Below, one piece after another: positions 12,150-42,102 of a DNA stretch of 50,267 nucleotides; within the stretch, counting starts at the first letter, position 1; each line of letters begins with the position of its first letter. The position numbers were made by a program, and so were the translations under genes. The notes under the pieces are model-generated. The model saw only the letters and a list, made by a program, of their open reading frames with translations. It did not search any database and was not told where the DNA came from. The DNA lies in NCBI GenBank assembly GCA_018823045.1, contig JAHJIX010000011.1, positions 1 to 50,267 on the forward strand. Direction: 5' to 3'. Source of the stretch: Patescibacteria group bacterium. Lineage in GTDB: Bacteria > Patescibacteriota > Patescibacteriia > Magasanikbacterales > UBA922.

Positions 12150-12221
12150 CTCGTCTCCATCCTGTGCTTCGCCAGGATTACGCCGAGTAAACTAATATAT
12201 TTACTCGAGTTGGATACGCAT

Positions 12222-12293
12222 GCCTTCATGGTGTAATGGATAACACAACGGTCTTCGGAACCGTTGATCTGGGTTCGACTCCTGGTGAAGGCA
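12222..12293 (+). tRNA. tRNA-Arg (UCG)
   Basis: Acceptor GCCTTCA/TGAAGGC, anticodon arm ACGGT-CTTCGGA-ACCGT, GGTTCGACTCC T arm. Confidence 0.9.
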
Positions 12294-26335: not shown

Positions 26336-26663
26336 AAGATAATCCCATATTAAGTATATACTCTTCTTTGAGTATAACGAGATTTATAGAATATTTCAAG
26401 GATTGTTTTTCTCACACAATTATGCTATAGTACATATATTCTTATTCTCTTCTCGATAGTCCTTACCCTTAGTACTCAGAATCTTTAAAGTATACACCCC
26501 CTAACTCAAAGTAAAGGGGAAAATCCAGAACCTCCATAGTGCGTCAAAGCCTCAACTGCCGACCAAAGCAGCAAAGACGAGTTTTTGTTTTTGGATTCCT
26601 GTGGCAACACACAGCACACAGGACTCCTCTAAGTATATTCCAAACAAAATCGAATGAAACATA

Positions 26664-26716
26664 CTATAAAGGATCCATCACGATCAAGTACAAATCACGT
26701 GATGGAAGCCGAGTTG
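26664..26716 (-). repeat. Spacer motif B: terminator-like hairpin with TGATTTGTACTTGAT apex
   Basis: Minus CAACTCGGCTTCCATCACGTGATTTGTACTTGATCGTGATGGATCCTTTATAG aligns with 31801-31853. Confidence 0.8.
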
Positions 26717-26881
26717 CTGTATTCCCTACAGCGGGGAGAAAGCTCGAATGATACCGATTACGTATGATACCCGCTTTCCTTTAAAGAACAATGCTCTGGA
26801 TTGACCTCCATCATGAGCAGTAAGGAAACTTCTTTTTATCTTGTGAAAGATTGGTAAAAGTTAGAAAACCATTTTGGAGAC

Positions 26882-27790
26882 TTAAAGTCTCCGTGCGATG
26901 GCAGCCTCCCGAACGGCCATCGCGTTTGAGCTGCTGGTGACATTGGCGATTTCCATCACCTGATCCACCAGCTCCTCAGCTCGGTCGCGGGACAAGTGAG
27001 GGCTCATCCCTTGTCCCTCGCGCAGATACCACTGCTTGGGGGAAAGGAGGGAGAACCCCTCATCCGCGACATTCTCCCGCCAACCGTCCTCGGGAAGGAC
27101 TTCCTCGTCCTCGCGACCAAGGTAGAGCTGGCGGGAGGCCTCCGGCATCCACGAGCGCATGCGCGCGTCGCAGTACCGGAGGCCCTTGACACTGATCTCA
27201 TCGTAGCCGAGCCGCCGAAGCTCGGGCAGGAATGAGAGATCGCTCACTCCTGCTATGTACGGGTGCGCGATCGGGAGCGCGCGCACACCGTACTCACGGG
27301 CCAGCTCGAGGGTCTTCAAGTGCTGCTGCACCGAAACACCCTCAACGTCGCCGTTACCAGAAATCCCAACAACCAAAAAGAGGTTAGGGATCTCGGCCAG
27401 GCGACGCATTTGCTGGCGGGAGACAGCCCACTTTGTGCAACAGGTCACGAGCTTGGCCCGACTCGCAACCTGCCCCAAGAAGTGCCAGAGCCACTTGTCA
27501 AGCTTTGGCCATAACGGATCTGTTATAGCCGTAAACCCGACAAAGTCGCCTTCAAGCACTCCCCAGGGGAATCGCAGGAATCGGTCCTGCGCCGCCGGGT
27601 CTTCCCCGATCCAAGGCGGCACGTTCACGTACGTGCACGCCTTGTTGATGCCCGCCACGGGATTGGCGTTCCATGTCCCGCGACGAGCATCGTGCTCGGT
27701 TATGAAGCAGTACTTGCATGCCACGGGGCACGCAGGCTTTCCTGCTTCAAATTTGAAGGCCGCCGAGCGGGCCTCCGTGATCTGAATCAC
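26882..27790 (-). CDS. Radical SAM protein (SPL-like fold), GC-rich
   Basis: CPVACKYC (CX3CX2C), TDP, TK, ISG, PYIAG strand motifs; SD AGGAGG before GTG start. Confidence 0.8.
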   Translation of the reverse strand: MIQITEARSAAFKFEAGKPACPVACKYCFITEHDARRGTWNANPVAGINKACTYVNVPPWIGEDPAAQDRFLRFPWGVLEGDFVGFTAITDPLWPKLDKWLWHFLGQVASRAKLVTCCTKWAVSRQQMRRLAEIPNLFLVVGISGNGDVEGVSVQQHLKTLELAREYGVRALPIAHPYIAGVSDLSFLPELRRLGYDEISVKGLRYCDARMRSWMPEASRQLYLGREDEEVLPEDGWRENVADEGFSLLSPKQWYLREGQGMSPHLSRDRAEELVDQVMEIANVTSSSNAMAVREAAIARRL

Positions 27791-27906
27791 TCTGACCTCC
27801 TGGCGGGGACTCCCCCGCCTTTTTTTTATTTTTTTGTTTTAAATTTGTCAGCACGACCGCGACGGACAATGTGGTGTCAGACGTCACGGCCGTGCTGAGA
27901 TGGCCC

Positions 27907-29082
27907 TCAGCGCTGGAGCATGTGCTCCAGGTCGGCGGGCGCGCAACCCACCGACGACCGGTCGGTGTAATGGTGCAGGATACAATACCTACACCCAAAA
28001 CACTTTTCGAGCTGGGCCGACCAAGGCCACCAGCTGTTGAGGCAGTGGAGGTTCGCACCCCCGACAGCCTCTTGGAGGACCTTAACGTGGCCCACGTCAA
28101 GCCCCCCTTCGTCAATCATCCCCGGCTTGACACACAAGGTGCCACCGAGGACGAACCGGCAGAAGGTGAGGTCCCCGAGGGTGCGCGCGTTGCGCACCAC
28201 GACGCGGGGCTGCCGCTCGACGTAACACGTCGTGCAGCAACTCTTGCAGTTCAGCCGCGTATCGCTGCTGAAGCTGCACGCCTTCTGCGGGGCAGGTTGG
28301 TACTCGAGATCGTAGCCCACCTGCCGGAGCCACGCGAGAATCTCAGGGTTGGGCTCGGTAGGACCACAGGTACCCCGAAGGGGACACTCGATCGCATCGC
28401 ATCGAACCAACTGAGGCGAACCCCAGTAGGGGTTGAAGGGCGAAGGACGCCCCGTGAGATAGCTCACGGCACAGTTCACTCGCGTGAACAAACGGATCCC
28501 ATTCTCACGGGCACACTCCATGACGAGGTCGAACCCCGTCATCTGCTTCACCCTCAAGACCCACTCAGTCCCTTCCTCAGGAGACATCTCCTCGATCAAG
28601 GAGGCATCCCCCCGGAACCCGCTCACGCAAGCGACCTCACACCCAGCCGCCTGGAGATTTTGAAAAATCTCCGTCAACACCTCCCTCGAGGTGTTGTAGG
28701 GCGGGGTTAAGGGACGGACGGCCGCAAAGGCCTTCACCCCCGCTTCCCGAAGGTTGCGGAGGGTAGTATAGCGGTGGGCGTGACCCACCTCCTCGAACGC
28801 CCGGCCGAGGCCGGAAACGCTCACCATCACAACCAGCCCGGGCAGGACCAACCTGGCCAAATCTGCGGCCCGCTGGGGACCGATGGCCCCCTTCGTGATG
28901 ATGCTCACCGGCCCGGTATGCCCGGTCTCGGCGAGCCGCTCGAGCTTCTCCATGGTATCACCCCACTGGAGGGTGGGGTCACCGTAGTAACAGTTGACGG
29001 AGACAGGCAGGGCCCGGAGGGCCTGCCCGACGATGGAGGTGGTGAGGTTGCGGGCGGAGTTGATGTTCTTGCTGTTGCTCAT
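27907..29082 (-). CDS. Cys-rich radical-SAM-like protein with the cluster motif at the C-terminus, GC-rich
   Basis: GDP, IITKG, VSVSG, RPLTP, VSGFRG strands; CKSCCTTC and C-terminal CFGCRYC; SD GAAAGGAG before ATG 29082. Confidence 0.75.
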   Translation of the reverse strand: MSNSKNINSARNLTTSIVGQALRALPVSVNCYYGDPTLQWGDTMEKLERLAETGHTGPVSIITKGAIGPQRAADLARLVLPGLVVMVSVSGLGRAFEEVGHAHRYTTLRNLREAGVKAFAAVRPLTPPYNTSREVLTEIFQNLQAAGCEVACVSGFRGDASLIEEMSPEEGTEWVLRVKQMTGFDLVMECARENGIRLFTRVNCAVSYLTGRPSPFNPYWGSPQLVRCDAIECPLRGTCGPTEPNPEILAWLRQVGYDLEYQPAPQKACSFSSDTRLNCKSCCTTCYVERQPRVVVRNARTLGDLTFCRFVLGGTLCVKPGMIDEGGLDVGHVKVLQEAVGGANLHCLNSWWPWSAQLEKCFGCRYCILHHYTDRSSVGCAPADLEHMLQR

Positions 29083-29213
29083 GATATCTCCTTTCAAGAG
29101 AATTGAGCGTACTAAACGCATCCACAACGGATACGTTCATATATACTTTTTTTTAAAAATATACATAAACGTATCAGGATAGTGTCCTTTTGACACTATC
29201 CTTGAGATACAAT

Positions 29214-30557
29214 TTATTTTGTTATTTCTTCCATGGCTTCGATAAAGCGATCCACATCTTCCTGCGTATTACACAAGGCAAATGATGCTCGAATAAATCC
29301 AGGAACAGCATCCTCTTTGCCTGCTTTTACATCTTCAATAATCTTTGTTTCATCTTGAATATCGAGCACCTGACGAATCACATTATATACACAAAAACTT
29401 CCAGCACGCACCCCAATGCCAAATCGACTATTGAGTTCTTCTGCCACGTCTGTAAAGTTTATTCCCTTTACATTAAATGGCACAACTGTGCTCAAATGAT
29501 TATCATTTACATAGAGCTCAATCTTTGAATTATTTTTCAAATAATCATATACCTGCTTTGCAAGTCCATGTTCATATGCTTCAACCTGCTCAATTCCAAT
29601 GTCTTCCAATGCTTCAAATGCTGATGCCATAGAAATGGCCCCAATCGCATTTGGTGTACCTGGATCATGTGCGAGTTGATTAGTATAACGTAAAAATTCA
29701 CCGTCTTTTGTAATATATGGTAAATTTCCACCGCCAATTTCATAAGATAAAAAGTTATCAAAAAACTTTTTTGGACCGATCAAAAATCCTCCACCATATG
29801 GCGCATAAAATTTATGACCAGATGCAGCAAGAAAATCAATTCCAAGCTCTTGCATGTCCATTGTATGATGTTGTACAAACTGACAAGCATCAACAATAAA
29901 ATATGCTCCGTATTTATGAACCAATTGTCCAATTGCTTTGATATCTGGACAATATCCTGTTGCATTTGATGATGCAGTAAGTACAAACGCTTTAATATCA
30001 TGTTCTTTTAATAATTTTTCAATATCTGCTAAATCAAATTCAAAATTTTCATTCACAGAATATTGTAATACTTGTTTTCTCCCTGCAAGCTGAATATGTT
30101 CATTTACGCTTTCCATATCGTCAAGCGCAACTTGCTCACTTCCTAATGCTTTAATTCCTTCTGTTTTAACCCAAGGAAGCCAAGAAGAACTATGTTCAAT
30201 ACTAGATACGGCAACTTTTCCAGAAAGAAAAGAAAAATAATACGCTACAGTATTCATAGCACCTGTAGTATTACCAGTAAACAAAACATATGCATCTTCT
30301 GGAGCGTTTACAAAACGTTTAATCGTATCTCTACTTGCTTCGTATACATCTGTCGATACTTTAGATTTTACTCCAGCACCACGATGAACAGAACCATAGC
30401 TTGCAATATATTCTTGTACAGCTTGCTCAACTGAAGCAAGAGCTGGAGTTGTCGCTGCATTATCTAAATTAACATAGCGAACAAGACCACGATCAGTGGT
30501 TTTTACTTGATAATTCTGAATTGCTTCAGAAAATAAATTGTTTGTTTGAATTGTCAT
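29214..30557 (-). CDS. Class V PLP aminotransferase / cysteine desulfurase (SufS-like)
   Basis: NLDNAATTP, DACQ, ASGHKFYAPYG, GVRAGSFC. Confidence 0.9.
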   Translation of the reverse strand: MTIQTNNLFSEAIQNYQVKTTDRGLVRYVNLDNAATTPALASVEQAVQEYIASYGSVHRGAGVKSKVSTDVYEASRDTIKRFVNAPEDAYVLFTGNTTGAMNTVAYYFSFLSGKVAVSSIEHSSSWLPWVKTEGIKALGSEQVALDDMESVNEHIQLAGRKQVLQYSVNENFEFDLADIEKLLKEHDIKAFVLTASSNATGYCPDIKAIGQLVHKYGAYFIVDACQFVQHHTMDMQELGIDFLAASGHKFYAPYGGGFLIGPKKFFDNFLSYEIGGGNLPYITKDGEFLRYTNQLAHDPGTPNAIGAISMASAFEALEDIGIEQVEAYEHGLAKQVYDYLKNNSKIELYVNDNHLSTVVPFNVKGINFTDVAEELNSRFGIGVRAGSFCVYNVIRQVLDIQDETKIIEDVKAGKEDAVPGFIRASFALCNTQEDVDRFIEAMEEITK

Positions 30558-30616
30558 ATTGTTTTTTATAAAAATCTTCTCAACCAACTCTATTCTTAAA
30601 AAATAAAGTAAGTAAT

Positions 30617-30847
30617 CAAAGGGATAAGGTGCTACTTATCCTGGTTTGAGTGCTGATACAGGCAGAATTACCCATATCACTGTTTCTTCTCATGAAGTCT
30701 CATTGCAAGGTCGCTTGCAACTCCTTCTTTAGCCGTGAGAATGCGCACTACGATAGTGACGCGCGGCAAGCTCGGTAGGAAGATAGATATTCACCTATCT
30801 ATGAGCTATTCCCAGTTTACTGCTGGTTCAGTTTCTGGCTGGACCAC
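30617..30847 (-). other. Hairpin-dense structured spacer ending in GGATAAG-TAGCAC-CTTATCC-CTTT
   Basis: At least five local inverted repeats visible in 230 nt. Confidence 0.65.
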
Positions 30848-31141
30848 CTAACGGGTGGGACGTTGCCCAAGCTTCGCTTCGATAGAAGCAAAAGCCTGGT
30901 GGGCCTCCGCAGTCCAAGGCTTCTCCTTGAAACTACGGTAGCCCATACAACACGCGAAAAACTCCGCATCCATCCCCGTCAAGAGGACAGAAAGAGATTT
31001 CCGCATCCCCGTCTCAGGCGGATCCATCCGGAGAGCAGCATTCTGCCGCCCATCCTGGAGAATCCACCGGATAGGAGTCCACCCCTCCAAAACTGCAGCC
31101 GCCATGACGCGGGCAGCCCTGAAGGTCTGATGATGGCTCAT
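30848..31141 (-). CDS. Hypothetical protein (97 aa), GC-rich
   Basis: Co-oriented ORF whose GC-rich block matches the ORF limits. Confidence 0.6.
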   Translation of the reverse strand: MSHHQTFRAARVMAAAVLEGWTPIRWILQDGRQNAALRMDPPETGMRKSLSVLLTGMDAEFFACCMGYRSFKEKPWTAEAHQAFASIEAKLGQRPTR

Positions 31142-31470
31142 CAATTTTCCACCACGCCTTGTCTCCTCGCGCTCCCGCAAGGTCTTTCGGGGTGGTGGCA
31201 ACTAAGAGTCACTGACCCAATATGGGTTATCCTTTGCGCATCAATATGACTTGCAAAACCAGTGTGATACACATTGCATGTATCTAATACAAAAAGAATT
31301 ATTCTTTTCGAAACCATCATGCAGATGGATCTTCCCGTACATCTAACAGCACGGGCTTTGATATGACTTGGTATTTGGGGTCCTAGCCCTTTAGGCAATA
31401 CCTTGCCATGCACCCCGACTGAGTCGGGGCACTCCCGGACATGCCGGTCCAGTGAATCCACCGTCAGACG

Positions 31471-31701
31471 CTAGGTCAACTCGGTGAACCGAGGTCCACC
31501 GAACCGAACGTCAAAGGCATCCGACGTAGGCGCGCAAGAAGCAAAAGCCTCTCGCAACGCCTGTCGGTTACCACGACGGTGGAGGCGCCGAGCCAAAACA
31601 GCAAAGCTGCTGTTTTGCACACCCTTACGCAGGTGTGCACTCCGCGCAGCCCCTTTCGAGACTGCACGAGCTGGCTGGCGCCCGCCATTTTGACGAGACA
31701 T
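31471..31701 (-). CDS. Small Arg-rich basic protein (76 aa)
   Basis: SD-like AAAGGA next to the ATG; ARRLHRRGNRQALRE segment. Confidence 0.5.
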   Translation of the reverse strand: MSRQNGGRQPARAVSKGAARSAHLRKGVQNSSFAVLARRLHRRGNRQALREAFASCAPTSDAFDVRFGGPRFTELT

Positions 31702-31770
31702 TCCTTTTATATATAAATACACTCTATACAAAAGCGATGCCTCGTCTGTTATTTATTTTGTAAAAAACTT

Positions 31771-31853
31771 CTTCTAAGAAACATCTATACATAGATACTT
31801 CTATAAAAGTCCCATTCCAATCAAGTGCAAATCATGAAATGGGAGTCGAGTTG
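31771..31853 (-). repeat. Spacer motif B: TTGCAC-loop hairpin, CTTTTATAG and a downstream small hairpin
   Basis: Near-identical flank to 32964-33038 (CTTCTAAGAAACATCTA..ATAGATACTTCTATAAAAGTCCCAT..GTGCAA..ATGGGA on +). Confidence 0.9.
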
Positions 31854-32008
31854 TGTATACGTTTTGCGGGTCGTATACTACCCCGTTTGATTCGCATTGC
31901 ACGAATCGTTTATGCGTCCAGACAGAAGATTCTGGGCGACTTTCCTTGCCGTGGTGTAAGATCAGGCAAGGACATTTGGAAAAAGACCAGCAGAGTCAGC
32001 GAGTCAGT

Positions 32009-32596
32009 TTAATCAGCGACGACACACCAGGTGTCATCGTATGACTTTACTTCCACAGCCTTCTCACGGATCTCCTCGACGGTCCACGTCGCCGCCTCAT
32101 TGTTTCCGCCCGCTAAGTTATGCACAAAGCGAACAGGACTCAGAGGAGCCTTCGGGCCGGCAAAGGCGAGGATGGCAACCAGCACATGCGTGCAGTCACT
32201 CTCCTCGATCCGTTGCTGCTCTTTGGCGTCAGCCTGGACGTCGGGGTCAGCCAGGTAGGCCTCGCGGGTATAAACCACGAGAGCACACCCGTCAACCGCC
32301 GCCGCACAGGATCGCTTCAGGAAAAGCTCGACTCGTCCACGGTAAAGTACCGCGTGAAAGTCAGAAGCATTCTCCGTACGACGACCAACGCCAGCAGAGA
32401 CGAACGGAACTGCATCCGGAACAAAGATAAAACCTTGCCCCGGAACGTCCTGTCCCTCGAAGTCAAACGCAGCAATAGCTTTTTGAGCCACCTCTGTGAA
32501 TTTCTCTGAGTTAAGAACCTTCGTTCCAATCGCCTCCACGTTGAAAGCAGAAACGATGCTCGCATGGGTCACACGAACATCAGGAGTATTATTCAA
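32009..32596 (-). CDS. Hypothetical protein, DUF3228-like
   Basis: SD AAGGAGG; VVYTREAY..LVAILA..PLSPVRFVHNLAGGN..W pattern recalls DUF3228 (family call tentative). Confidence 0.7.
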   Translation of the reverse strand: MNNTPDVRVTHASIVSAFNVEAIGTKVLNSEKFTEVAQKAIAAFDFEGQDVPGQGFIFVPDAVPFVSAGVGRRTENASDFHAVLYRGRVELFLKRSCAAAVDGCALVVYTREAYLADPDVQADAKEQQRIEESDCTHVLVAILAFAGPKAPLSPVRFVHNLAGGNNEAATWTVEEIREKAVEVKSYDDTWCVVAD

Positions 32597-32963
32597 TCAT
32601 TTCCTCCTTTCTCACCGCAGCTCTCGCTTTGGCGACCCAGGCTCTTATGGCATTGCACCATAAGTCCCTGCTGCTTAAATATCATCTTGTATTGAGTGTT
32701 GTTCCCCTGTTGACCTCAGGGGTGAGCGGGAATGCTCTCTCAATCTCTCTATTCTAAACGATATTGTTAGAACAGAATTTTACAAGGCAAGCAGTAGCTG
32801 ATAACGGAGCTTATGCGAATACGTAACATGTATTAAACGCCTGTGCATTGCGCGCAGGTCTCTCATCGGGAGACGAGAGATCATGAAATTTCTTTCATCT
32901 AAGATATCTAGAGAAAGATACACTACATGAAAGAAACTTCTATATATTTTTTAATGAACTGGT

Positions 32964-33076
32964 CTTCTAAGAAACATCTAAAATATAGATACTTCTATAA
33001 AAGTCCCATCAAATTCACGTGCAATGAATCAGATGGGAATAGACTTTCGCAGTCAAGTGCTTATCGTGCGAAAGTC
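32964..33076 (-). repeat. Spacer motif B, tandem pair of GCAC-loop hairpins
   Basis: Minus GACTTTCGCA-cgatAAGCACttgac-TGCGAAAGTC, then TCCCATCTGATTCA-TTGCACG-TGAATTTGATGGGA-CTTTTATAG. Confidence 0.85.
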
Positions 33077-33350
33077 ATGTGTAATATTTAACCCAATATT
33101 CTAGGGGAAACCTCGATTGATACCTTCTATGTGTACCCGGTTTCTTTTTTACTCATTTTCGGCGAGTAACCTATTCTGGATTCATGCCTTCACCAGAAAT
33201 GGCGGAATGTTTTCTTCTTGCTTTGTGTAAGTTTCTCCGACGTAGGAGAGCAAGAACCGTCAACAGACAACGGTGGTTTTTAAGCATCCTAGGATCAACC
33301 AATACCTAGGCCCACTCTTATGTTACCCTTCAGAGTGATTAGGGGGGCTC

Positions 33351-34385
33351 TTAACCCAAGCGCGCCTTGAGCGCCGGCAGCACCGTCTCGTTCCAGACCA
33401 CCTCGCTCACGTGGAGGAGGAAGGTCGTGTTGGAGATGATGCCCGCGGCGGGCGAGGACTCGAAGTCGTCGGGGAGGAGCGACTGCAGGTTGATGTCCTG
33501 CTGGTGCCGCTTGCTCACCGCGAGCGAGTACTGCGCGCCGTGCTGCGCCGCGATCGGGCCGAACGCCTTCACGACGACGGTCACCTTGGCGCCCTTGGTC
33601 TCGAGCGCCCGCGTGAGCGTGTTCAGCTCGAAGCGTGGGGCCTCTCGCGAGTCCACGAGCCACGTGGACGGGGCCACCTCGGTCGCGGTCTCGGCGAGCG
33701 CCTTGGCGGCTCCGACCTGCTCCTCGTACTGCGCCACCTTCTGGCGCAGGCCGTCGAGCGCGGTCTCGTCGCCCTGCGACGCGTCGACGAAGCTCTGGAA
33801 GAACTCCGCCTTGGCGTCCTCGGAGCGCTGCGGCGCCTTCGGGTTGAAGGGCGGCAGCGTGCCGAGCGCACGGCAGGCGAGCCAGCCGAGCTCCGAGAGG
33901 GTCTCGGCGCTCTGCTTCGGCCGCTCGTCGAAGACGGCGGCGTCGGCGTCGATCTGCTCGTAGGTCACGCCCAGCGCCTTCATGGCACCCGTGAGACCGT
34001 CCAAGTCGCTGTCCGCGACGATGACGGTCCCCTCGGCGTTGAACTCCCCGCTCGTGATGAGCGTGGAGCACGCGGGGTGCTCGGCGCGGCTGGAGATGAT
34101 CGCGTCGGACGCGACCTCACGGAGGCGGGACGCGGCGTCGGCGATCGACTGCGCACGCGGGTTCGAGGGGGCGAGCTCGTCGTGGTGGTCGCGGACGACC
34201 ACGTTCACACCGTCGGCCACGAGGGCCTCGGCCGTGGCGACGAGCTGCTCGGTGGCGGGGGTGTCGATGAACACGACCTGCCGCGCCTCGAGGGCGGCGA
34301 GCTCGGTCAGGACAGTCTCGCGGTCGCTGGGGCTGAAGAACTTCGAGAACAGAACGTTGGAGTCGCTGATCTTGATCTGGAACAT
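33351..34385 (-). CDS. DHH-like phosphoesterase, very GC-rich
   Basis: FIDTP, VRDHHD, DSDLDG motifs; SD GAGGAG before ATG 34385. Confidence 0.7.
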   Translation of the reverse strand: MFQIKISDSNVLFSKFFSPSDRETVLTELAALEARQVVFIDTPATEQLVATAEALVADGVNVVVRDHHDELAPSNPRAQSIADAASRLREVASDAIISSRAEHPACSTLITSGEFNAEGTVIVADSDLDGLTGAMKALGVTYEQIDADAAVFDERPKQSAETLSELGWLACRALGTLPPFNPKAPQRSEDAKAEFFQSFVDASQGDETALDGLRQKVAQYEEQVGAAKALAETATEVAPSTWLVDSREAPRFELNTLTRALETKGAKVTVVVKAFGPIAAQHGAQYSLAVSKRHQQDINLQSLLPDDFESSPAAGIISNTTFLLHVSEVVWNETVLPALKARLG

Positions 34386-34596
34386 GTTTATCTCCTCAGA
34401 GACTACCTGGTATGTCAAACCAGGGGAATCTCAGATAGCTTATGCCAATCCTTGATCCCAAATTATTATTTCTACAGATATTGACAACGCCTCTGTATGG
34501 CGCGCTTGGGAGCTTCCCCCAAGTATTACATATCAGTTTTACACCCGATACTACGGTGTGAGATAAATCTCAATGTATGTACCTGCCTTGCTAACA

Positions 34597-34648
34597 GGGG
34601 ATCCTTCGATTACTCCCGTACTTCGTCAGGATCCACTCAGGATGACAG
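34597..34648. repeat. REP-like half element
   Basis: GGGGATCCTTCGA..CACTCAGGATGACA, same family as 18627-18747. Confidence 0.75.
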
Positions 34649-34927
34649 TGATATACACACATTGAGAATCATCTCAAATTATTTTTTCTTTTAAAGATCA
34701 GTACCTGTTCCCTATTACTTGTTACAAGTTATACGATACAGGTTACACGTTTAGTCGTAATACCGACTGTTCCTGCTCCCATCTCTTCTTGCGAATTAAT
34801 GAGGGCGGAACGCACTCGGTACTATCCATGTCTCACAACATGTATAGGAAGCTCGCGAGTGGGAAGCTTCGATCTTTCGATCAAATCTATCCACAATCTC
34901 CAGCTTCTCTCTCAGTTTCCTGAGAGC

Positions 34928-35030
34928 GATGTACTCACATTGCCGGAAGAAATCTCTCTCCTTCCTTTACTCGGGCAATATGGGTAAGCATCTAAGTGAT
35001 ATAAGTGTATAAAACACAAACGCATTGTCA
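34928..35030 (-). ncRNA. Leader motif A, copy 1 (putative structured RNA)
   Basis: TGACAATGCGTTTGTGTTTTATACACTTATATCA then a long stem enclosing TAAAGGAAGGAGAGAG; homologous to 39971-40064. Confidence 0.6.
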
Positions 35031-35264
35031 GTTATCTGCTATGATATCTTTTTCTTCCGCTCATCCCCCGACAAGTTATGTTGGCCTCAGAATGAAAAAA
35101 CACTCCTTTGAGGGAGCGCGCTATAGTGACTGGCATACAGAGATACTCTCTATATACTAGCCCTATCTCGCTCTCTCTTTCGATCTAGGTTGCTTGATTT
35201 GTAAGGTTACTTGTCTTGATTGACTTGTGGCTGTTTTTCTTGCCCTTTGTCATCATGACGTCAT

Positions 35265-35293
35265 ACTATAATACAAAATAGAGAAAATGTCAA
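35265..35293 (-). promoter_or_regulatory. sigma70-type promoter P1 driving the leftward array
   Basis: TTGACA-17-TATAGT. Confidence 0.75.
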
Positions 35294-35364
35294 GACCTCG
35301 TTGTTTATGTTGTCTTTTTAAAATATAATTTAGCTTATTTTAGCTAAATTTATGTATAGTAAAT

Positions 35365-35386
35365 ATGTCCAGTGCCTACTAGACAT
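35365..35386. promoter_or_regulatory. Putative operator (ATGTCTA-N8-TAGACAT family)
   Basis: ATGTCCA-gtgcctac-TAGACAT. Confidence 0.6.
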
Positions 35387-35605
35387 ATTTAAGTTAGAGA
35401 ACAAAAAAAGCCCTAAAATAAGGCAAAAAATACGTTCTGTTCTACTGAACTCGTTATGAACAAAATACAATTTCTTGGCTAATATAAGGTAAAAAATAGA
35501 TGTGGAAATCAAAAAACAATACTCCCCTGCCCCCAAAATATCTAAAAAAGAAGAAAAATCAAGGTATTTCTCCAAAAAATATTGATATCAACGAACAAAT
35601 AACCC

Positions 35606-35790
35606 CGTCATTGCGCCGCGTGCCGTTTATCGGTGAGCCATAGCGAAGCAATCCCCTCGCCAGCTCCATAGTCTGAAGAGCAACGGAAGCTGTGGAGCTT
35701 CTATGCTCTTGCACTATGGCTCCACAGCCCTAGCGGGACTATGGAGCCAGCTTATGAGGCTCCCTCCAGAGGCGGGCAAGCGCAATGACG
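35606..35790. repeat. RPE/REP-like palindromic element with nested internal hairpins
   Basis: CGTCATTGCG..GAAGCAATCCC..GCTCCATAGTC/GACTATGGAGC..CGCAATGACG. Confidence 0.75.
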
Positions 35791-35998
35791 TGATAAAAGA
35801 GCCAAAAAACACCCTTGTCAATAGAAAAAGAGCTTGACAAAGCAAAAAAATAAGCAAATTTTGCTTATTTTAGTGTAAAAATGAATGATTGACAATTGCC
35901 CTATTTTATGCTATATTATATCTATCAAGACGAAAAGGGTCCCTGATATTCAAATTATTTGGATGGATGGCCCCCTTTTTTATTTTACTTCAACAGAT

Positions 35999-36047
35999 AA
36001 AACATGTCTACACTCACTAAGACATGTTTTTTCTTTTATGCTATAAT
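35999..36047 (+). promoter_or_regulatory. Palindromic operator overlapping the -35 of the regulator's own promoter
   Basis: AAAACATGTCTA-cactcact-AAGACATGTTTT; extended -10 TGCTATAAT at 36039-36047. Confidence 0.7.
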
Positions 36048-36079
36048 AAAGCAAATAACAACCCTCTAATACCTCTACT

Positions 36080-36859
36080 ATGCAAGAAACAATTATTACC
36101 AACCTCATGGAAGCAGGGCTTGACCCAAGTACTGCTGAAATTTATATGATGCTCATTGAACGTGGTGAAATGTCTCCAAAAAACATGTTCCCTCATACGG
36201 AACTCTCTCGTGCGACCGTGCATGATGCATTATCTGAACTCTTAGCCTATGATTTTGTAGAATACCGCAAAGAAGGCCGCCAAGCATATTATATGCCAGT
36301 CCACCCAAATAAACTTCATAATTTGATTGAAGACAAAAAACGAGAGACAAAACAGTTTGAGCAAAACATGCAAGAAACCATCCGCTCACTAAGCGGTACA
36401 TTTAACTTGAGCCAACACAAACCAGGGGTCCGATTTTTTGAAGGAAAAGAAGGATTGAGAGTAGCACTTGGAGATACATTAACATCCCAAGGAACGATCT
36501 ATGCATATATAGATGTTGATTCTGTGGTAGATAAAAATATTGATGAAATGAACCAAGCCTATGTCAAAAAAAGAAAAGAATTAGGCAAAGATAAACAACT
36601 ACTGATTAATAATAGTGCCAGTGCTCAGGAATACATGAAAAAACTTGGACCAAAAAATACAGATACGCGCATGTTACCCACATATATAGACGCTTTCCAT
36701 ACGAGTCTACAAATTTATGACAATAAAGTACTCTATGTAACCCTACGAAAAAAAAATATTATTTCTATTATTATAGAAGATAAAGATATTTATAAACTCC
36801 AAAAAGATTTATTTCACTTTCTGTGGGATATGTCAAAAGATTCAATGATCCAACATTAA
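36080..36859 (+). CDS. TrmB-family transcriptional regulator
   Basis: N-terminal wHTH (GL...AEIY..L...SRATVHDALSEL), coiled linker, PGVRFFEGKEG, C-terminal IYDNKV..IIED..F..LW effector domain. Confidence 0.88.
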   Translation: MQETIITNLMEAGLDPSTAEIYMMLIERGEMSPKNMFPHTELSRATVHDALSELLAYDFVEYRKEGRQAYYMPVHPNKLHNLIEDKKRETKQFEQNMQETIRSLSGTFNLSQHKPGVRFFEGKEGLRVALGDTLTSQGTIYAYIDVDSVVDKNIDEMNQAYVKKRKELGKDKQLLINNSASAQEYMKKLGPKNTDTRMLPTYIDAFHTSLQIYDNKVLYVTLRKKNIISIIIEDKDIYKLQKDLFHFLWDMSKDSMIQH

Positions 36860-39294
36860 TTACTTTTTTCCTCAACCTGCTCAAAAACAAATACGCGTTG
36901 TTTCCCATCTGGATGATCAAAATACCGATGGACATCATACCCCTCTTTTGTGAGTCTTTCAACGGTATCAAGTGCAACCTGCCAATGATCTTCAGCAGAA
37001 AAAGCACGGACAATCAATCCTTTTGGATTATCATCTTGATCAATAAACGCAAGTAAATCTTCTTCTGTCATATAACGAGATATAGCGTCTGCATTCTGCT
37101 TCACATCAGCAACCATGGTATAAAACCATATATCCTTTTTTATTTCTTCAATCCCTGTAATTCTAAATCCAATATCTTCTACATACCTTATTCCCACAGA
37201 GATCGCTGGAGAAGCTGTAATATGAAAAGGAGACTCTTCTACAACTTTTGTGAGGGAACCCAACATCATTACTTCTCCAATTCCAGCACCCCGATAGTTA
37301 GAATTGACATTAAACCACTGACCATATAATTCATCTGGTTTTTCTGGTATTGGTGTAAAACCAAAAAAACCAAGAATATTATTTGCATATTCATTTTCAG
37401 TATCTACTTGAAGACCCTTTGCTTCAGAAAGATCTTCAATCCTCAATATAAAAAATTCTGTTTCTTTCTGAGAAAATGCACCTTCTAGCCCACGAACAAC
37501 TTCCTCAACAATTGCAGATTCTTGTGTAGACCAATTTTTAAATACAATTTCTTTCATTCTCTCTTGATCAATAGGTGAAATTTTTATTGCCCGCTCTCTA
37601 TTCAAAGATAAATTATTAACAACAGAAATATCTACACGCTCTGCTCCCTTAAACTTCTCCCGAAAAATAGCCGAAAAAGCCACAACTTCTCGATTTACCC
37701 CTTCTAATAATGTAATTAACTGAGCCATTTTTTCATCATCCCGCATCACAGTATGATATTTTTTTAGTAAACCGGTTGCTTTATTTAAAATACTGGTACT
37801 GATTCTCGTTGTGGATAATCCTTCTGCATAATTATGTTCAGTAAAAAAATCTTCTATATGAATATCTAATTCTTCTGCTGCCCGAATAATTTCACTAAAT
37901 TGATGAAAAACATCCTGGGCTATTTCTTTTTTTTCTCTTGCTTCAAAATACTTTGCCATAGAAATAATACGGCCAGAAGATTTCTCATCAGCTTCAGTCG
38001 CCAACAAACAACGTATTCCCTCTATCCCATATTTTTCTTTTAATTCTATTAAAACCTGAGCTTTATGTTGTGCTTCTTTACTCTCAAATTCTTCACCAAT
38101 AAATTGATACACCCAAAAGATTTCTCGGACACTTAAATTACCAATTAAATTTCGATAATGAATATGAAAATCTGGTAAATCTATTAAAAAACGATTTCTC
38201 TTTTCTTCTGGGTAACCCCCTTCATGCGAAAAAAGTAAATTATATCCTAAATTTTCATTTATCGTAGCTGTAATAGTCTCTCCATACCCACTTCTATCCA
38301 TCTGACGTGATTTGACTTGTATATAACCGATTGGGCCCAACCTCCCAAAAATACTAATTGTTTCTGCTGAATCTAATTGTTGCACATATATTGCATCCTT
38401 AGGGATATGTCCTTCTATAATAAAATGCTTATCTAATATATCAAAAGTATTTCCTTGTATTGAGACGGGTCCAACATCAACGTTTTTTAAAATCCAATCA
38501 TAAGTATCAGCTAATCCAACTTTTTTCTCAATTCTTGCTTTCTTTCTTTTTGCAAGGAGATATTGTGCTTGTTCTTCATCGACAAGTTCAAATATATCAC
38601 AGATTGCACGAGTAAATTTATATGGATATGGATGATCAATCCATGCATCTAAATCTGCTTTAAATCTATCTGGATCTATAAGAGATTGTAAAGACATAAC
38701 TTTCTGTGCATTTGTAAAGTTTGCTCGATTTGATGATGAATAAGATTCTTCATCTAAACGCCACTTTAAATCAGCATTATAAGGTGCATTATGCTCTGCA
38801 TATTGATGAGATCGATCATATTCACCATTATACGGAACTCCACCCCCAGCTGTGATTTTTTTCATTAATGCATTCCTGATATCTTCTGCTAAGATATTAA
38901 TAATAGCTGCTACAGACTCAACACCTGCTTCAAGTGATTTAAATACATACTTTTTTAACATTGTTAATAACTCCGCATAAACAATTTCATCAAATCCAAA
39001 TTGATCTTCTGTTCCTTCATTAATCCCTGCGTAAGGAATATCTTTACGCTCATCACCACGCAGTGGCAAATCAGATTCTTCTTTTCCTCGTATCTGATCA
39101 AGTAATCCATCATCTTCAATTAAAAAATGCAATTCATCTTCTATCAATTCATGATCTTTTAATTCTCGTAACATATCAATATATGCTTCTACGGTATCCG
39201 CTGATTCAAATCGTTTTTTCCAATAAAAAAAAGACTCATGTTCTTTATGAGTTTCTTCTTCACTACGGGGATATCTTCGCTCTGATCTATTCAT
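36856..39294 (-). CDS. Large acidic protein with C-terminal GNAT acetyltransferase domain
   Basis: FNVNSNYRGAGIG acetyl-CoA motif A and YVEDIGF motif B. Confidence 0.75.
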   Translation of the reverse strand: MNRSERRYPRSEEETHKEHESFFYWKKRFESADTVEAYIDMLRELKDHELIEDELHFLIEDDGLLDQIRGKEESDLPLRGDERKDIPYAGINEGTEDQFGFDEIVYAELLTMLKKYVFKSLEAGVESVAAIINILAEDIRNALMKKITAGGGVPYNGEYDRSHQYAEHNAPYNADLKWRLDEESYSSSNRANFTNAQKVMSLQSLIDPDRFKADLDAWIDHPYPYKFTRAICDIFELVDEEQAQYLLAKRKKARIEKKVGLADTYDWILKNVDVGPVSIQGNTFDILDKHFIIEGHIPKDAIYVQQLDSAETISIFGRLGPIGYIQVKSRQMDRSGYGETITATINENLGYNLLFSHEGGYPEEKRNRFLIDLPDFHIHYRNLIGNLSVREIFWVYQFIGEEFESKEAQHKAQVLIELKEKYGIEGIRCLLATEADEKSSGRIISMAKYFEAREKKEIAQDVFHQFSEIIRAAEELDIHIEDFFTEHNYAEGLSTTRISTSILNKATGLLKKYHTVMRDDEKMAQLITLLEGVNREVVAFSAIFREKFKGAERVDISVVNNLSLNRERAIKISPIDQERMKEIVFKNWSTQESAIVEEVVRGLEGAFSQKETEFFILRIEDLSEAKGLQVDTENEYANNILGFFGFTPIPEKPDELYGQWFNVNSNYRGAGIGEVMMLGSLTKVVEESPFHITASPAISVGIRYVEDIGFRITGIEEIKKDIWFYTMVADVKQNADAISRYMTEEDLLAFIDQDDNPKGLIVRAFSAEDHWQVALDTVERLTKEGYDVHRYFDHPDGKQRVFVFEQVEEKSN

Positions 39295-39326
39295 ATGAGT
39301 TATTATATCACAGATTGTCTCTTTTT

Positions 39327-39548
39327 TTATATATCAAAAGAGAAGGCGGTGCAGGCCTTCTCCGAGTGGTGATATATTGTTTCGTCTCTTTTAGCAGCGT
39401 CGCTACCATGGACAAGATATATCAACTCGCCCATTCCCCATGTGTACTCTTCAGCGGTAGCCTCCGAATACCACTCTAGCCAAGGGTATGGCATGCAGTT
39501 TGCTTCACAGCAATCCACTCCCGGTTTACTGCCGGTGCAGTGAGCCAA
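39327..39548 (-). CDS. Small Cys-containing hypothetical protein
   Basis: 73-aa ORF directly after 39556-39750 in a GC-richer block; TTG start uncertain. Confidence 0.45.
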   Translation of the reverse strand: MAHCTGSKPGVDCCEANCMPYPWLEWYSEATAEEYTWGMGELIYLVHGSDAAKRDETIYHHSEKACTAFSFDI

Positions 39549-39555
39549 GCAGAGG

Positions 39556-39750
39556 CTAGGCGGCTACTGACCGCCGCCGCTCAGATTGGAGTTCATCATA
39601 AACTCCAATGAGGATCCAGTGATCCCCAGAGCAACGGAGGCAATAGCAAGCAGCCTCAAAGCAGTGCTGGCAAAACCATGAATGGCTTTCCAGCGTGGCA
39701 CCCGCGCGAAAATACGCGCGGACAGCTTCTGCTTTCTGTCTACTTGACAT
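39556..39750 (-). CDS. Small Cys-rich (Zn-finger-like) protein
   Basis: CQHC..CYCLRC; first ORF after promoter P2 and its leader. Confidence 0.55.
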   Translation of the reverse strand: MSSRQKAEAVRAYFRAGATLESHSWFCQHCFEAACYCLRCSGDHWILIGVYDELQSERRRSVAA

Positions 39751-39970
39751 GAAGATCTCTTTTCATGAAATCTCACCCCACTCCTTGCTCCCCTGATGCT
39801 ACCGTGCAATATCAGGGGTATTCGGAGTGGGGCCTTTCTTTTCTTGTGAAACAACTTGCTGGACTATCCAGTTACCCACCCCAACACATGCTACGGTGAC
39901 AAGTTGGATTTTTCCTCCTCCACTTTCCTATATAAAAAATCTCTGCACAAAAAAGTAAAGAAAGAAAAAA

Positions 39971-40064
39971 TGCTGATACTCGTCAAAAGGCTCTCTCTTC
40001 CCTTTAAGCAATATCAGCAATGCTTTTCTTGATACAAGTGTATAACACACAAACGCTATTGTCA
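39971..40064 (-). ncRNA. Leader motif A, copy 2
   Basis: TGACAATAGCGTTTGTGTGTTATACACTTGTATCA then a TGCTGATA/TATCAGCA stem enclosing TAAAGGGAAGAGAGAG. Confidence 0.6.
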
Positions 40065-40079
40065 CTTTGACAACGTCGA

Positions 40080-40108
40080 AGTATAGCATAGAAAAATGAA
40101 TATGTCAA
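40080..40108 (-). promoter_or_regulatory. sigma70-type promoter P2
   Basis: TTGACA-17-TATACT with extended TG. Confidence 0.8.
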
Positions 40109-40168
40109 GCTGCACAAATTCACAATTATGTTTATTGCCTACACTAAGCTAATTTATATCCTTAATAT

Positions 40169-40190
40169 ATGTAAAGTGGTGATTAGACAT
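40169..40190. promoter_or_regulatory. Putative operator (ATGTCTA-N8-TAGACAT family)
   Basis: ATGTAAA-gtggtgat-TAGACAT, with flanks similar to 35342-35395. Confidence 0.55.
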
Positions 40191-40371
40191 ATTTATGTCA
40201 AAACATAAAAAAATAACTAAAATAACACAAAAAACAGCTCTTTATATAAAAAACTGTTCTTTTAGGGGTATATGTGATGAAATACGTCTAGTTCACTAGA
40301 GGTATTTACATAAATGTGTACACTACTCAACACAACTACCTTGATTTTATTTCTTAGTTGACAAGTTACAT

Positions 40372-41367
40372 TTATTCCACCCAATCATCCTCTGCCTCAT
40401 ACACAGACGCAGGTGCATAGCGAAAATAAAAATTTCCTGGTCCCATCTGCTGATAGAGCCAATCAGCAACATCTTGCACATCTTCTAAATTTGCAGGGAT
40501 CAACTTTCTCTGCTGTAATTCTTTTACATATTGTTCTGCCACCTTTGCACCAATTTCTGCTGCTTTATCCAAATTAAGTGCTAACCAAAATACACGAATC
40601 CCATATTCCTCTATTGTTTGCTCAGCGTCATCATCTAATGTTAACTCCATACCACGACTGAGTGCCTCTGCATAAAATCGCAGCATCTTAGCAAGCATCT
40701 TTGGCCCAATTTGATCATGATATTGTTTATACTCATAATCACTTTGCCTTACTATCCCTCGAATAATATCTCGCAAACATGCATCCGTTGCTACAACATA
40801 CTCATCAGTCGCATACAGCTCATTCATTGTTAAATCTCGTGTATTAAGATATTCTCCAATATTTTCCAAGACTTCCACACCATCTCCTTGTTTAAAATCA
40901 TCTGGCATATACTCTTGAGCGAGTTCATTATCCATTCCAGGCTCTGGTTCATCTTCTGTCAAACGCACGATATCTATATCACGAGGTAATGATGTCGGAT
41001 CAATCCCTAAATTTCTCAGTAATAAAGAGCGAGCAGCTCCTCCTTTATATCCATACCCCTCTGGCAAGCGTTTCTCCATAAAATGCTCTGTCACAGGCAA
41101 ACGATAACTCCATTCATCTATCTGCTCTAATCCAACAAGATGTAATTCTTCTGCTGTCAGATCTGACAACTCTTTTTCTCGTGCAATATGCTCAATAATA
41201 GCTAAACGTTGTTCGCGTTTTACTGTCTCATCTACGGTCTCTTGTTCTGCCTTTTTTAGTAGTTCTACCGCCTCTGGGAACTCTTTTTGTGCATATTTAA
41301 GCAAAGAATCCTTAAAAGACCCTGCCTGAGGTGTCTTAATTTCTAGAGAAAACCTTTTTTTACTCAT
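40372..41367 (-). CDS. Class II nucleotidyltransferase-like protein (CCA/poly(A) polymerase head domain)
   Basis: KGGAARS..RDIDI and RDLTMNE resemble GGxVRD..DxD and RDFTIN. Confidence 0.7.
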   Translation of the reverse strand: MSKKRFSLEIKTPQAGSFKDSLLKYAQKEFPEAVELLKKAEQETVDETVKREQRLAIIEHIAREKELSDLTAEELHLVGLEQIDEWSYRLPVTEHFMEKRLPEGYGYKGGAARSLLLRNLGIDPTSLPRDIDIVRLTEDEPEPGMDNELAQEYMPDDFKQGDGVEVLENIGEYLNTRDLTMNELYATDEYVVATDACLRDIIRGIVRQSDYEYKQYHDQIGPKMLAKMLRFYAEALSRGMELTLDDDAEQTIEEYGIRVFWLALNLDKAAEIGAKVAEQYVKELQQRKLIPANLEDVQDVADWLYQQMGPGNFYFRYAPASVYEAEDDWVE

Positions 41368-41627
41368 ATCAATAATATAAAAATATCTATATATGTATTA
41401 TAGCAAATATACCACTCATTTGCACAAAAACACAAAATACCCATTTTTATGCTTAAATAAGCCAAAAGAAGAAATTTGCGTTCAACGAGAAATCTTTGAC
41501 TGGTCTGTTTTGCCTAGTGGCAAACAGGGATAACCCATTTCGGGCCAGTACACCCAAAAAAAGGAGAAACCCTATCACAGATAGGGCCTATCGCTCCGAG
41601 TTGAACCCCGACCAATTGGTCGGTGAC

Positions 41628-41783
41628 ATGCTCGACGAGCTCCTCCGTGAAGAGTGCCCAGGCGAGAACGTCTGGGTGCCGGGGATCATGAACGGGGCCA
41701 TGGGCGCAACTTTGCGTCTTATGGCCGCCGCTGATCTCCTCACGGAGGCCGCCAAAGAAAAGCTCGGCCTCAAAGAAGGCTGA
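41628..41783 (+). CDS. Small hypothetical protein in a GC-rich patch (start uncertain; frame open from 41496)
   Basis: GC-rich ORF flanked by the same spacer motifs as the main array. Confidence 0.5.
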   Translation: MLDELLREECPGENVWVPGIMNGAMGATLRLMAAADLLTEAAKEKLGLKEG

Positions 41784-41950
41784 GCCATAATTGGCTAGTC
41801 GGACCCAGCTGTGCCCGACGATAAAGAAACTGGGAAAGCCACAACAGAGATCCAGGAGAAGTTGTGGCGGCGGATCTGTTCCGTCGGTCTAAAGTAACCA
41901 CATTCGTGGAAACGATAGATCTCAAGACAACCCGACACACTCGGGACCCC

Positions 41951-41987
41951 AAAGGCATCTCTTGCACCAGAGACGCCTTTTATTTTA
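41951..41987 (+). terminator. Terminator-like hairpin with TTGCAC loop
   Basis: AAAGGCATCTC-TTGCACCA-GAGACGCCTTT-TATTTT. Confidence 0.7.
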
Positions 41988-41990
41988 CAA

Positions 41991-42018
41991 AAAAACACCG
42001 TCAACAGACGGTGTTTTT
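41991..42018. terminator. Bidirectional terminator after rpoC
   Basis: AAAAACACCGTC-aaca-GACGGTGTTTTT. Confidence 0.85.
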
Positions 42019-42033
42019 ATGTTTCTTATGTAT

Positions 42034-42094
42034 GGGATCCTTCGACTCGTTTCACTCACTCCACGTAAAAAACACGTGGCACAGCAGAATGACA
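42034..42094. repeat. REP-like half element
   Basis: GGGATCCTTCGA...CAGAATGACA. Confidence 0.65.
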
Positions 42095-42102
42095 AGCAAA
42101 AT

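Follow-up and report, generated by a model that had tools for sequence, protein, structure and literature searches.

We describe a gene cluster at positions 26340-42018 of contig JAHJIX010000011.1 from a Patescibacteria group bacterium (GCA_018823045.1), where "the window" means the whole stretch of 50,267 nucleotides (nt) that was analysed. Four genes of the cluster have 55-69% GC (DHH355, p195, p406 and rSAM302), with a cysteine desulfurase gene of 35% GC in between, and they are accompanied by a TrmB-type regulator gene (trmB), a large gene named p812 and long folded non-coding stretches. The balance of the evidence tips slightly towards a chromosomal and locally regulated cluster of conserved modules of the candidate phyla radiation (CPR), recurring patchily between genomes, with GC-locked genes and a conserved leader RNA, and not towards cassette capture. 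The GC excess is located at synonymous sites, and the GC composition outlasts synonymous saturation, gene by gene. In addition, the leader of DHH355 contains a conserved covarying RNA element, R1, which is apparently undescribed. No paper on the locus or the phenomenon was found in the literature listings, the abstracts and the passages of PMC12455944 that were consulted.

The window corresponds to contig C9 of a genome with 1,161,138 bases in 24 contigs and 35.7% GC. It also encodes rpoB, rpoC, pnp, ruvC and yebC; yebC, ruvC, rpoC and rpoB are the neighbours of the cluster, and the named homologues of the unusual window genes are labelled Patescibacteria, Uhrbacteria or Parcubacteria. Measured in 500-nt windows, the GC content rises to 0.58-0.63 at 27001-29000 and to 0.62-0.71 at 33501-34500, compared with about 0.30-0.40 in the rest. 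The five genes of the unit lie on the minus strand and are, from right to left, DHH355 (33351-34418; GC 0.69), p195 (32009-32596; GC 0.55), the desulfurase (29214-30587; GC 0.35), p406 (27907-29127) and rSAM302 (26882-27790; GC 0.61). The GC content at third codon positions (GC3) is 0.95 in DHH355, 0.79 in p406, 0.73 in rSAM302 and 0.56 in p195, against 0.19 in the desulfurase and 0.19-0.30 across the desulfurase, trmB, p812, rpoC and yebC. In DHH355, p406 and rSAM302, no more than about 30 nt separate the GC steps from the start and stop codons, and the composition shifts match codon boundaries four times. An initial annotation of this DNA, made from the sequence alone, had reported a sharp GC contrast between genes close to start and stop codons, and the GC3 values and the ~30-nt boundaries bear it out.

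The same mosaic is found in a related locus, L075, where DHH355, the desulfurase, p406 and rSAM302 are ordered as in the window, with GC contents of 0.69, 0.37, 0.63 and 0.61. Conserved four-fold sites were compared between both loci, being saturated in every gene, with each gene keeping its own class. In DHH355 (n=120), 65 sites are the same G or C, 45 are exchanged between G and C, 10 between strong and weak bases, and none is AT. In p406 (n=135), 51 sites are the same G or C, 7 the same A or T, 44 G<->C, 30 mixed and 3 A<->T. The desulfurase (n=122) shows the opposite class, with 33 sites being the same A or T, 32 A<->T, 51 mixed, 2 the same G or C and 4 G<->C. Such a pattern is not predicted by recent import followed by slow amelioration. 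The concept of amelioration reportedly goes back to Lawrence and Ochman 1997.

The high GC3 of DHH355 is also widespread among its relatives. Of 31 genes in the CPR clade of the DHH355 tree, 24 reach a GC3 of at least 0.74, and 16 of these are embedded in flanks with at most 0.47 GC. High GC3 occurs in every CPR subclade, with the high-GC hosts in nested and not in basal positions. The 50-odd Melainabacteria-type homologues match the composition of their own genomes. A syntenic group of six loci (L008, L013, L015, L016, L017 and L021) retains GC3 from 0.74 to 0.85, with neighbour proteins 47-90% identical. The rule is not universal, since AT-rich DHH355 genes exist in L011 (GC3 0.12) and L064 (0.36). 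As the GC content is held past saturation, we suggest a persistent force as its cause; recent import of the GC-rich genes is unlikely. The force would act on the genes or their mRNAs, by codon or transcript selection or by biased conversion limited to the genes. Structure alone fails as the cause of the bias, because the DHH355 coding sequence is unstructured here. The GC-ending codons are unmatched to the tRNA set (38 found), given that Ala is read only by UGC and Pro only by UGG; as speculation, this mismatch would fit throttled or conditional translation.

A second GC-rich island of the genome is found on contig C15 at 65100-69400 (locus L001, 5100-9400), with a 639-aa Asp-rich, thrombospondin-type-3-repeat-like secreted protein (GC3 0.75) and two ORFs (open reading frames) of 264 and 333 aa. 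Isolated ORFs with GC3 of about 0.8 are also present at C17 81115-81645 and C14 8476-8886 of the same 36% GC genome, and about 10 genes have such a high GC3 genome-wide, excluding antisense or overlapping frames over the same genes. One antisense frame of this kind is the 357-aa ORF at 33411-34484 (plus strand) of the window, over DHH355, and similar antisense ORFs even cluster between genomes. Long antisense ORFs are by-products of GC3-rich genes and may mislead gene callers. Several records of metagenome-assembled genomes named 'uncultured Gammaproteobacteria' (L007, L009, L012-L014, L017, L022, L026 and L075) carry CPR-type loci that group with Patescibacteria in the DHH355 tree; these labels look wrong.

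The leader of DHH355 (34419-35264, minus strand) has about 850 nt and folds at -299 kcal/mol, against -218 ± 7.7 in shuffles (z -10.5). The antisense strand folds nearly as well (z -10.0), hence folding alone cannot show the strand. When the leader was aligned to that of L006, where the protein is 55% identical, we found conserved blocks in the same order, common to L086 and L066. R1 covers ~125 nt of this leader (34744-34867, minus strand). A covariance model of this element, the 3' domain of a conserved region of ~330 nt, detected six loci at E <= 6e-6 (the window, L006, L086, L066, L014 and L007), of which the first four are the seeds, matching by construction, and only L014 and L007 are independent detections. 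All six accepted matches are 5' of DHH355 and on its strand, generally ~100-800 nt away and 3 kb away in L066. A seventh weak match, in L024 (E 0.046), is not upstream of the gene and was dropped. No match was found with the model in 150 other genomes of the phylum.

Across the 27 pairs of the R1 hairpin and long helix, 87% of the cells are paired and 15 pairs change on both sides, in an alignment of six sequences, four of them seeds, fitted to a related model. None of 500 shuffles reached the observed covariation, and slid partners pair in only 31-50%. Upstream of R1, a hairpin with a GAGAGA loop (~34930-34990, minus strand) covaries in four sequences, whose alignment is unreliable, and a similar block exists in the p812 leader. 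Both R1 and this hairpin keep compensatory changes across loci whose proteins are 44-55% identical. We infer a cis-regulatory role for R1. A terminator-like hairpin of the same leader (35119-35100, minus strand) competes with helix B of R1 for a shared UAG. The leader also contains a REP-like (repetitive extragenic palindromic) repeat and the 49-nt block D5 (34975-35023, minus strand), whose second copy is located at 40008-40056 in the leader of p812. The latter leader (39295-40079, minus strand) has about 800 nt and a fold z of -10.8, with the D5-like block and, 45 nt ahead of the start codon, a terminator-like hairpin (39363-39339). The initial annotation took this region for a satellite unit of its own, and we now assign it as the p812 leader starting at promoter P2.

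The initial annotation also left room for spacers belonging to a known Rfam family, and in 26000-42500 no match was found at E<=1 save a 27-bit IS128 fragment (gathering score 80) outside the leader. The sole Rfam matches of the window at gathering thresholds are two tRNA genes at 12077-12293.

Leaders of another DHH355 subgroup (L013 at ~9640-9740, L016 and L017) have a tRNA-like piece that mimics the T-arm and acceptor. It was not called as a tRNA by ARAGORN; a tmRNA-like fragment of 17 nt (E 0.0013) is the sole match in Rfam that is credible, another one at E 0.52 being disregarded. A nucleotide-conserved block in leaders of the L013/L016/L017 type reads as a short ORF.

Among the sigma-70-like sites in 26000-42500, the top two are promoters P1 (35265-35293, TTGACA-17-TATAGT, with 11 of 12 consensus positions) and P2 (40080-40108, TTGACA-17-TATACT), both on the minus strand and both in agreement with the sites at 35293 and 40108 proposed by the initial annotation. 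A third good site faces trmB (36080-36859, plus strand), for which the promoter scan gave sites at 35889-35917 and 36019-36047 (plus strand). An 84-nt block upstream of the promoters exists in two copies. Each of the three regions contains a palindrome with 9-nt arms and a 12-nt spacer: O1 (35361-35390) is ~70-100 nt upstream of the -35 hexamer of P1, O2 (40167-40196) is upstream of P2, and O3 (36000-36029) overlaps the proximal trmB promoter. The claim of an operator common to both leftward promoters is therefore supported, with a third copy at the trmB promoter in addition. The pattern has 5 matches in the genome against 0 for a reversed control. Three of them are intergenic and belong to this locus; the remaining two fall within genes (recG and one of the sugar-nucleotide type) and were regarded as chance matches. 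In other loci, no match to the pattern was found upstream of DHH355, as expected for regulators that have diverged.

The regulator has an N-terminal winged helix recognised by Pfam TrmB (31.6 bits, cut-off 25.6), and the TrmB C-terminal sugar-binding domain was not detected in it. From sequence, we suggest that this protein would bind the palindromes and co-control both leftward units, and the position of O3 over the proximal trmB promoter suggests autoregulation. Convergent with trmB, p812 (36856-39294, minus strand) encodes a large protein whose C-terminal domain resembles GNAT, which we take as a lead only (Acetyltransf_1 at 20.0 bits, cut-off 20.7; Atlas GNAT).

Parts of this arrangement recur in other genomes. 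In the 80 fetched loci with a DHH355 homologue, tblastn detected a trmB homologue upstream of DHH355 in L007, L014, L022, L023, L028, L038, L064 and L066, and in a ninth locus, L086, which came from a metagenome scan, trmB was assigned by ORF position. The gene p812 is convergent with trmB in L014, L022 and L066 (tblastn) and in L028 and L038 (protein clustering). The desulfurase-p406-rSAM302 triad seen in the window and L075 is also present in L113, L117 and L118, while L114 has p406-rSAM302, with a TrmB-like gene near two of them. The material that the window has in addition to L075 consists of p195 and the structured stretches around it. What follows the regulator and leader varies: L006 and L007 have DHH355 alone, L075 has DHH355 with the triad, and L022, L028, L038 and L066 have other GC-rich ORFs. 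Gene content, whose variation between strains the initial annotation raised as a check, does vary from genome to genome, for instance between L006/L007 and L075. No Pfam family was found for 10 GC-rich ORFs from the related loci. Long GC-elevated folded stretches are located upstream of DHH355 or of the triad in L066, L014, L007, L008 and L113; between the regulator and the cargo, the non-coding stretches of related loci average z -2 to -5 and reach -13 in L066.

Several observations weigh against the reading of a conserved and locally regulated cluster. DHH355 was found in none of 40 relatives of the same order, p406 in 10 of 401 genomes of the phylum and 3 of 401 of the class, and p195 in 3 of 401, a patchiness in keeping with mobility. 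The triad of four other genomes lacks the GC excess (GC3 0.29-0.50), so that the bias of p406 and rSAM302 is lineage-specific and could result from replacement by GC-rich xenologues. High-GC genomes carrying DHH355 do exist (L009 and L033, 0.64-0.66 GC). Conservation is shown for R1 and one hairpin only, the other spacers having no detectable relatives, and palindromes of the REP/MITE-like type (MITE, miniature inverted-repeat transposable element) account for some of the excess in folding. The small, model-fitted alignment behind the covariation of R1 counts here too. Co-transcription is putative: the contigs of an RNA library cover solely rSAM302, p195 and the spacer at 32534-32814 and could be DNA carry-over, so that they give no more than a hint of transcription. 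Finally, the operators at P1 and P2 are upstream of the -35 hexamers, a position compatible with either sign of control (repressor or activator).

The patchy distribution, the ordinary GC of the triad homologues and the presence of DHH355 in L009 and L033 could also be explained by repeated recent horizontal import around a native desulfurase, with high-GC CPR lineages, for instance, as the GC-rich donors and with genes that have still to drift towards the composition of the host. A comparison with L086 points in the same direction, since its DHH355 coding sequence shares 84% nucleotide identity with that of the window over 1015 nt, while the flanks have just two short matches. We nevertheless consider this explanation unlikely, although it deserves some weight. 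L075 has the same mosaic, AT-rich desulfurase included, despite saturation in all four genes, the high GC3 extends over all CPR subclades with the high-GC hosts nested, and the syntenic group holds its GC3 near 0.8 while the neighbouring proteins diverge in step. In addition, no DHH355 relative was found in viral contigs, PHROGs gave no phage family for six locus proteins, and the matches in PADLOC were restricted to the desulfurase (SspA/DndA) and the TrmB protein (a weak Csa3/CasR-like helix-turn-helix), which we read as generic family likeness.

The non-coding stretches could also be mostly debris, made of decayed genes and REP/MITE-like palindromes, with only the promoters and terminators being functional. 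On the minus strand, the folded stretches are the trailer after rSAM302 (26340-26881, z -5.3), a 116-nt hairpin spacer between p406 and rSAM302 (27791-27906, z -9.2, with inverted repeats I2 and I3), an 86-nt AT-rich spacer with two hairpins (29128-29213, z -13.9, with inverted repeats I1 and I7), a GC-elevated stretch of ~1.4 kb (30588-32008, z -9.9 at 30848-31201 and -16.6 at 31202-32008) and the spacer between DHH355 and p195 (32597-33350, z -10.0). A GC-rich hairpin block is also found between P1 and trmB (35600-35800, z -7.7). The long stretch results from our revision of the seven co-oriented ORFs listed in the initial annotation, of which five genes are supported. The ORFs orf117, orf106 and orf86 have the non-coding signature GC1=GC2=GC3, and no homologue of orf117 (30848-31201) but its self-match was found among 5.8 billion proteins; the gap from p195 to the desulfurase is therefore ~1.4 kb of non-coding DNA.

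Taken together, spacers have z values of -2.7 to -16.6, against 0.3 to -1.2 in AT-rich genes. In a scan of 200-nt segments, z <= -4.0 was obtained in 23 of 46 segments in 26601-35800 and in 4 of 7 in the satellites, against 7 of 198 elsewhere in the window. The description of the spacers as made of hairpins holds in that they fold well beyond shuffles, but the excess is not restricted to them. The rSAM302 coding sequence reaches z -11.9, and the coding regions of rSAM302 and p406 have z of -4 to -12 per 200 nt, against -0.7 to -2.9 in DHH355. The genes of a uniformly GC-rich genome have a mean z of -0.5, hence the excess in coding regions does not follow trivially from their GC content.

In favour of debris, the leader has a ~60-nt palindromic REP/MITE-like element (34590-34653) with 4 other genomic copies (C9 ~18643, C15 ~40947, C17 ~70338 and C4 ~8034). 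Furthermore, the core of the block between P1 and trmB (35711-35752) is a multi-copy community repeat, with depth up to 985 against 58 and clustered contig ends. Both strands fold about equally, and most spacers have no detectable relatives: in blastn of all spacers against 83 related loci, only short weak matches were found, leader blocks excepted. However, the compensatory changes of R1 and its upstream hairpin, the recurrence of long folded GC-elevated leaders in the five related loci and the result of tblastx, in which the spacers gave nothing and no trace of decayed genes, make a debris origin quite improbable.

Another possibility, put forward by the initial annotation, is a modular platform for gene capture or expression, in which cassettes bounded by repeated RNA or DNA elements, D1 and other motifs, would be inserted past a regulated promoter. 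D1 has 62-106 nt and three copies on the minus strand: a (~32941-33046), in the spacer between DHH355 and p195; b (~31750-31858), in the 1.4-kb stretch; and c (~26654-26722), in the trailer. Copies a and b are 79% identical over 106 nt and bracket p195, and the cargo past the regulator and leader varies between loci, as a capture platform would have it. Yet the copies are located 305, 160 and 160 nt past the stop codons of DHH355, p195 and rSAM302, and each has a conserved loop on a stem whose differences compensate one another, with a CUUUUAU-type tail, as in a terminator-like hairpin with a U-tract. With blastn, D1 was not found elsewhere in the genome nor in related loci. It may act as a leaky terminator or a 3'-end stabiliser.

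In agreement with the initial annotation, which saw no integrase, transposase or reverse transcriptase, neither these nor any other recombinase were found in the Pfam scan of 10 ORFs in 26.8-41.8 kb. The modules are conserved and old, and their composition outlasts saturation. Capture is, in our view, very improbable. From the proposal of a regulator-controlled system with structured RNA we retain the shared operators, the folding and the covarying R1, and we abandon its capture component.

An assembly chimera, in which reads from some GC-rich organism would have been joined to a contig of CPR origin, has composition alone in its favour and is next to inconceivable, since a single 10,703-nt Logan contig of the likely source sample covers 26000-35746 with 0 differences and an even depth of 58, contigs of an independent study cross the AT/GC junctions at 30465-30940, 33081-33518 and 35293-35748 with 0 differences, and the coincidence of shifts with codon boundaries as well as the mosaic of L075 contradict it. 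A joint skipping 30026-38179 appeared in two runs; its short side has just 21 letters and it was set aside as likely from another organism.

Under the conserved-cluster reading that we favour, the locus could work as follows. A TrmB-type repressor or activator would recognise one palindrome at three places, including its own proximal promoter. From P2, transcription would proceed through the ~800-nt folded leader into the GNAT-domain gene p812. From P1, it would go through the ~850-nt folded leader with R1 and the GAGAGA-loop hairpin, and past this leader DHH355, p195, the 1.4-kb structured stretch and the desulfurase-p406-rSAM302 triad would be co-transcribed. Each sub-unit would be closed by a D1 hairpin with its U-tract.

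The proteins of the P1 unit are known to different degrees. The 355-aa product of DHH355, whose start is likely M12 at 34385, is a DHH/DHHA1-fold phosphoesterase. Its AlphaFold2 (AF2) model has a pLDDT (predicted local distance difference test) of 94.5, and the top 20 PDB matches in Foldseek are all of the DHH family (E 8e-8 to 7e-4, probability 0.97-1.00), including the PAP phosphatase 8a8k, PggH 7d62, GdpP and RecJ. The RDHH and DxDG motifs (R76, D77, H78, H79, D138, D140 and G141) are invariant in 28 sequences. No Pfam family was assigned to DHH355, with the window protein not reaching the gathering score of PF01368; a precomputed PF01368 match exists in 5 of 120 homologues among the matches listed. 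We found 232 homologues, the closest being 82% identical and located on a 12-kb contig. The p195 protein is conserved, with 448 cluster representatives in its family at E<=1e-3, and its AF2 model (pLDDT 96) has fold matches solely with the uncharacterised apicomplexan proteins 4fbd and 2pd0.

In the triad, the desulfurase is a 457-aa SufS/CsdA-like protein (Pfam Aminotran_5 2e-79; TIGR01979 sufS 6e-72, under the cut-off of that model) and is 72% identical to its counterpart in L075. The p406 protein, probably starting near 29082-29097, is CPR-restricted, with 71 homologues of which the named ones are all Patescibacteria. It has no Pfam match and is weakly similar to radical SAM proteins of the Rv2578c/PA0069 type (NCBIfam E 0.004-0.005, far under cut-offs of 360-430 bits). 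Its closest homologue, on a 32.9-kb contig, is 79% identical, and a search of the class-level genomes for a closer p406 locus returned just 46%-identical ones. The radical-SAM-like rSAM302 has the CxxxCxxC motif near residue 22 and a Radical_SAM match (PF04055) with E 0.0076 and 16.9 bits, against a cut-off of 29.5; homologues with 41-53% identity adjoin p406 in L075, L113, L114, L117 and L118.

At the right end of the cluster, the region called satellite 2 (41496-42018, plus strand, z -5.4 to -5.9) has a small GC-rich ORF with the GGATAACCCAT motif (41528-41538) before it and a terminator after it, together with structured RNA. The candidate ORF ends at 41783, has 51-95 aa depending on the start and shows coding-like GC1, GC2 and GC3, and the terminator (41991-42018) is bidirectional and common to the end of rpoC. 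The other copy of GGATAACCCAT is in the 1.4-kb stretch (31222-31232, minus strand). Exactly two copies exist in the genome, each on the sense strand of its own unit, just as the initial annotation had said of the reuse of motifs.

Comparison with known systems shows likeness and difference in each case. Like the leaders of riboswitches and attenuators that have been detected in AT-rich bacteria as long intergenic regions rich in GC, those of this locus contain terminator-like hairpins, and R1 is a conserved covarying structure 5' of one gene family in all six loci. Published GC-IGR (GC-rich intergenic region) pipelines reportedly search by the elevated GC of intergenic regions (PMC8723152, PMC11109978 and PMC6429828). 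Unlike riboswitches, the leaders have 800-870 nt, several times the usual aptamer with expression platform, and R1 has no Rfam match and is rare, as the search of the phylum genomes indicates. DHH355 shares its fold and its invariant DHH and acidic motifs with the DHH/DHHA1 phosphoesterases (NrnA, pAp phosphatase, PggH, GdpP and RecJ), but its identity with the solved members is 10-15% and the TM-scores are 0.26-0.38, perhaps due to another orientation of the domains.

As in acquired genomic islands, the GC content is atypical, the distribution is patchy and several genes have unknown functions. In contrast with them, the locus is GC-rich in an AT-rich host, the bias is limited to genes with an AT-rich one in the middle, no mobility genes were found at the locus, and the composition is kept past saturation instead of ameliorating. 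Integron arrays also have co-oriented genes after one promoter, and here a repeated element follows three genes; however, no IntI-type recombinase was found among the scanned ORFs, D1 is a plain hairpin with a U-tract in three copies, and the modules keep their order between genomes. The regulator resembles the TrmB family in its N-terminal winged helix, over the Pfam threshold, and in the palindrome over its own promoter, and differs in that the regulated genes are not sugar genes and the operators are ~70-100 nt upstream of the -35 at the target promoters.

To our knowledge, almost no RNA regulation is known in this uncultured phylum. If the reading of a conserved and locally regulated cluster holds, R1 would be a candidate new class of RNA tied to a phosphoesterase of the DHH family. 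Adjacent genes with GC3 of 0.95 and 0.19 would then challenge the reading of atypical GC as recent transfer, and if the persistence holds, the locus would offer a clean natural system in which to measure how selection or conversion acts on synonymous sites. A further step, which we consider distinctly unlikely, is that this small CPR regulon, with G or C at almost all synonymous sites and with long, hairpin-dense leaders and spacers around its transcripts, forms a dedicated class of GC-locked transcripts whose behaviour is set apart from that of the AU-rich bulk of cellular mRNA. It would be switched by TrmB and by a new leader RNA sensing the substrate of the DHH protein, and the gene-wise GC lock within one operon would be a selected expression code and no trace of foreign descent. 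If true, such transcripts might survive AU-directed RNases in dormancy or host detachment, or might be translated only under a particular state of tRNAs or their modification. In the reading of a conserved cluster, the connection of p195, p406, p812 and DHH355 to one local regulator would provide a starting point for finding the functions of these proteins.

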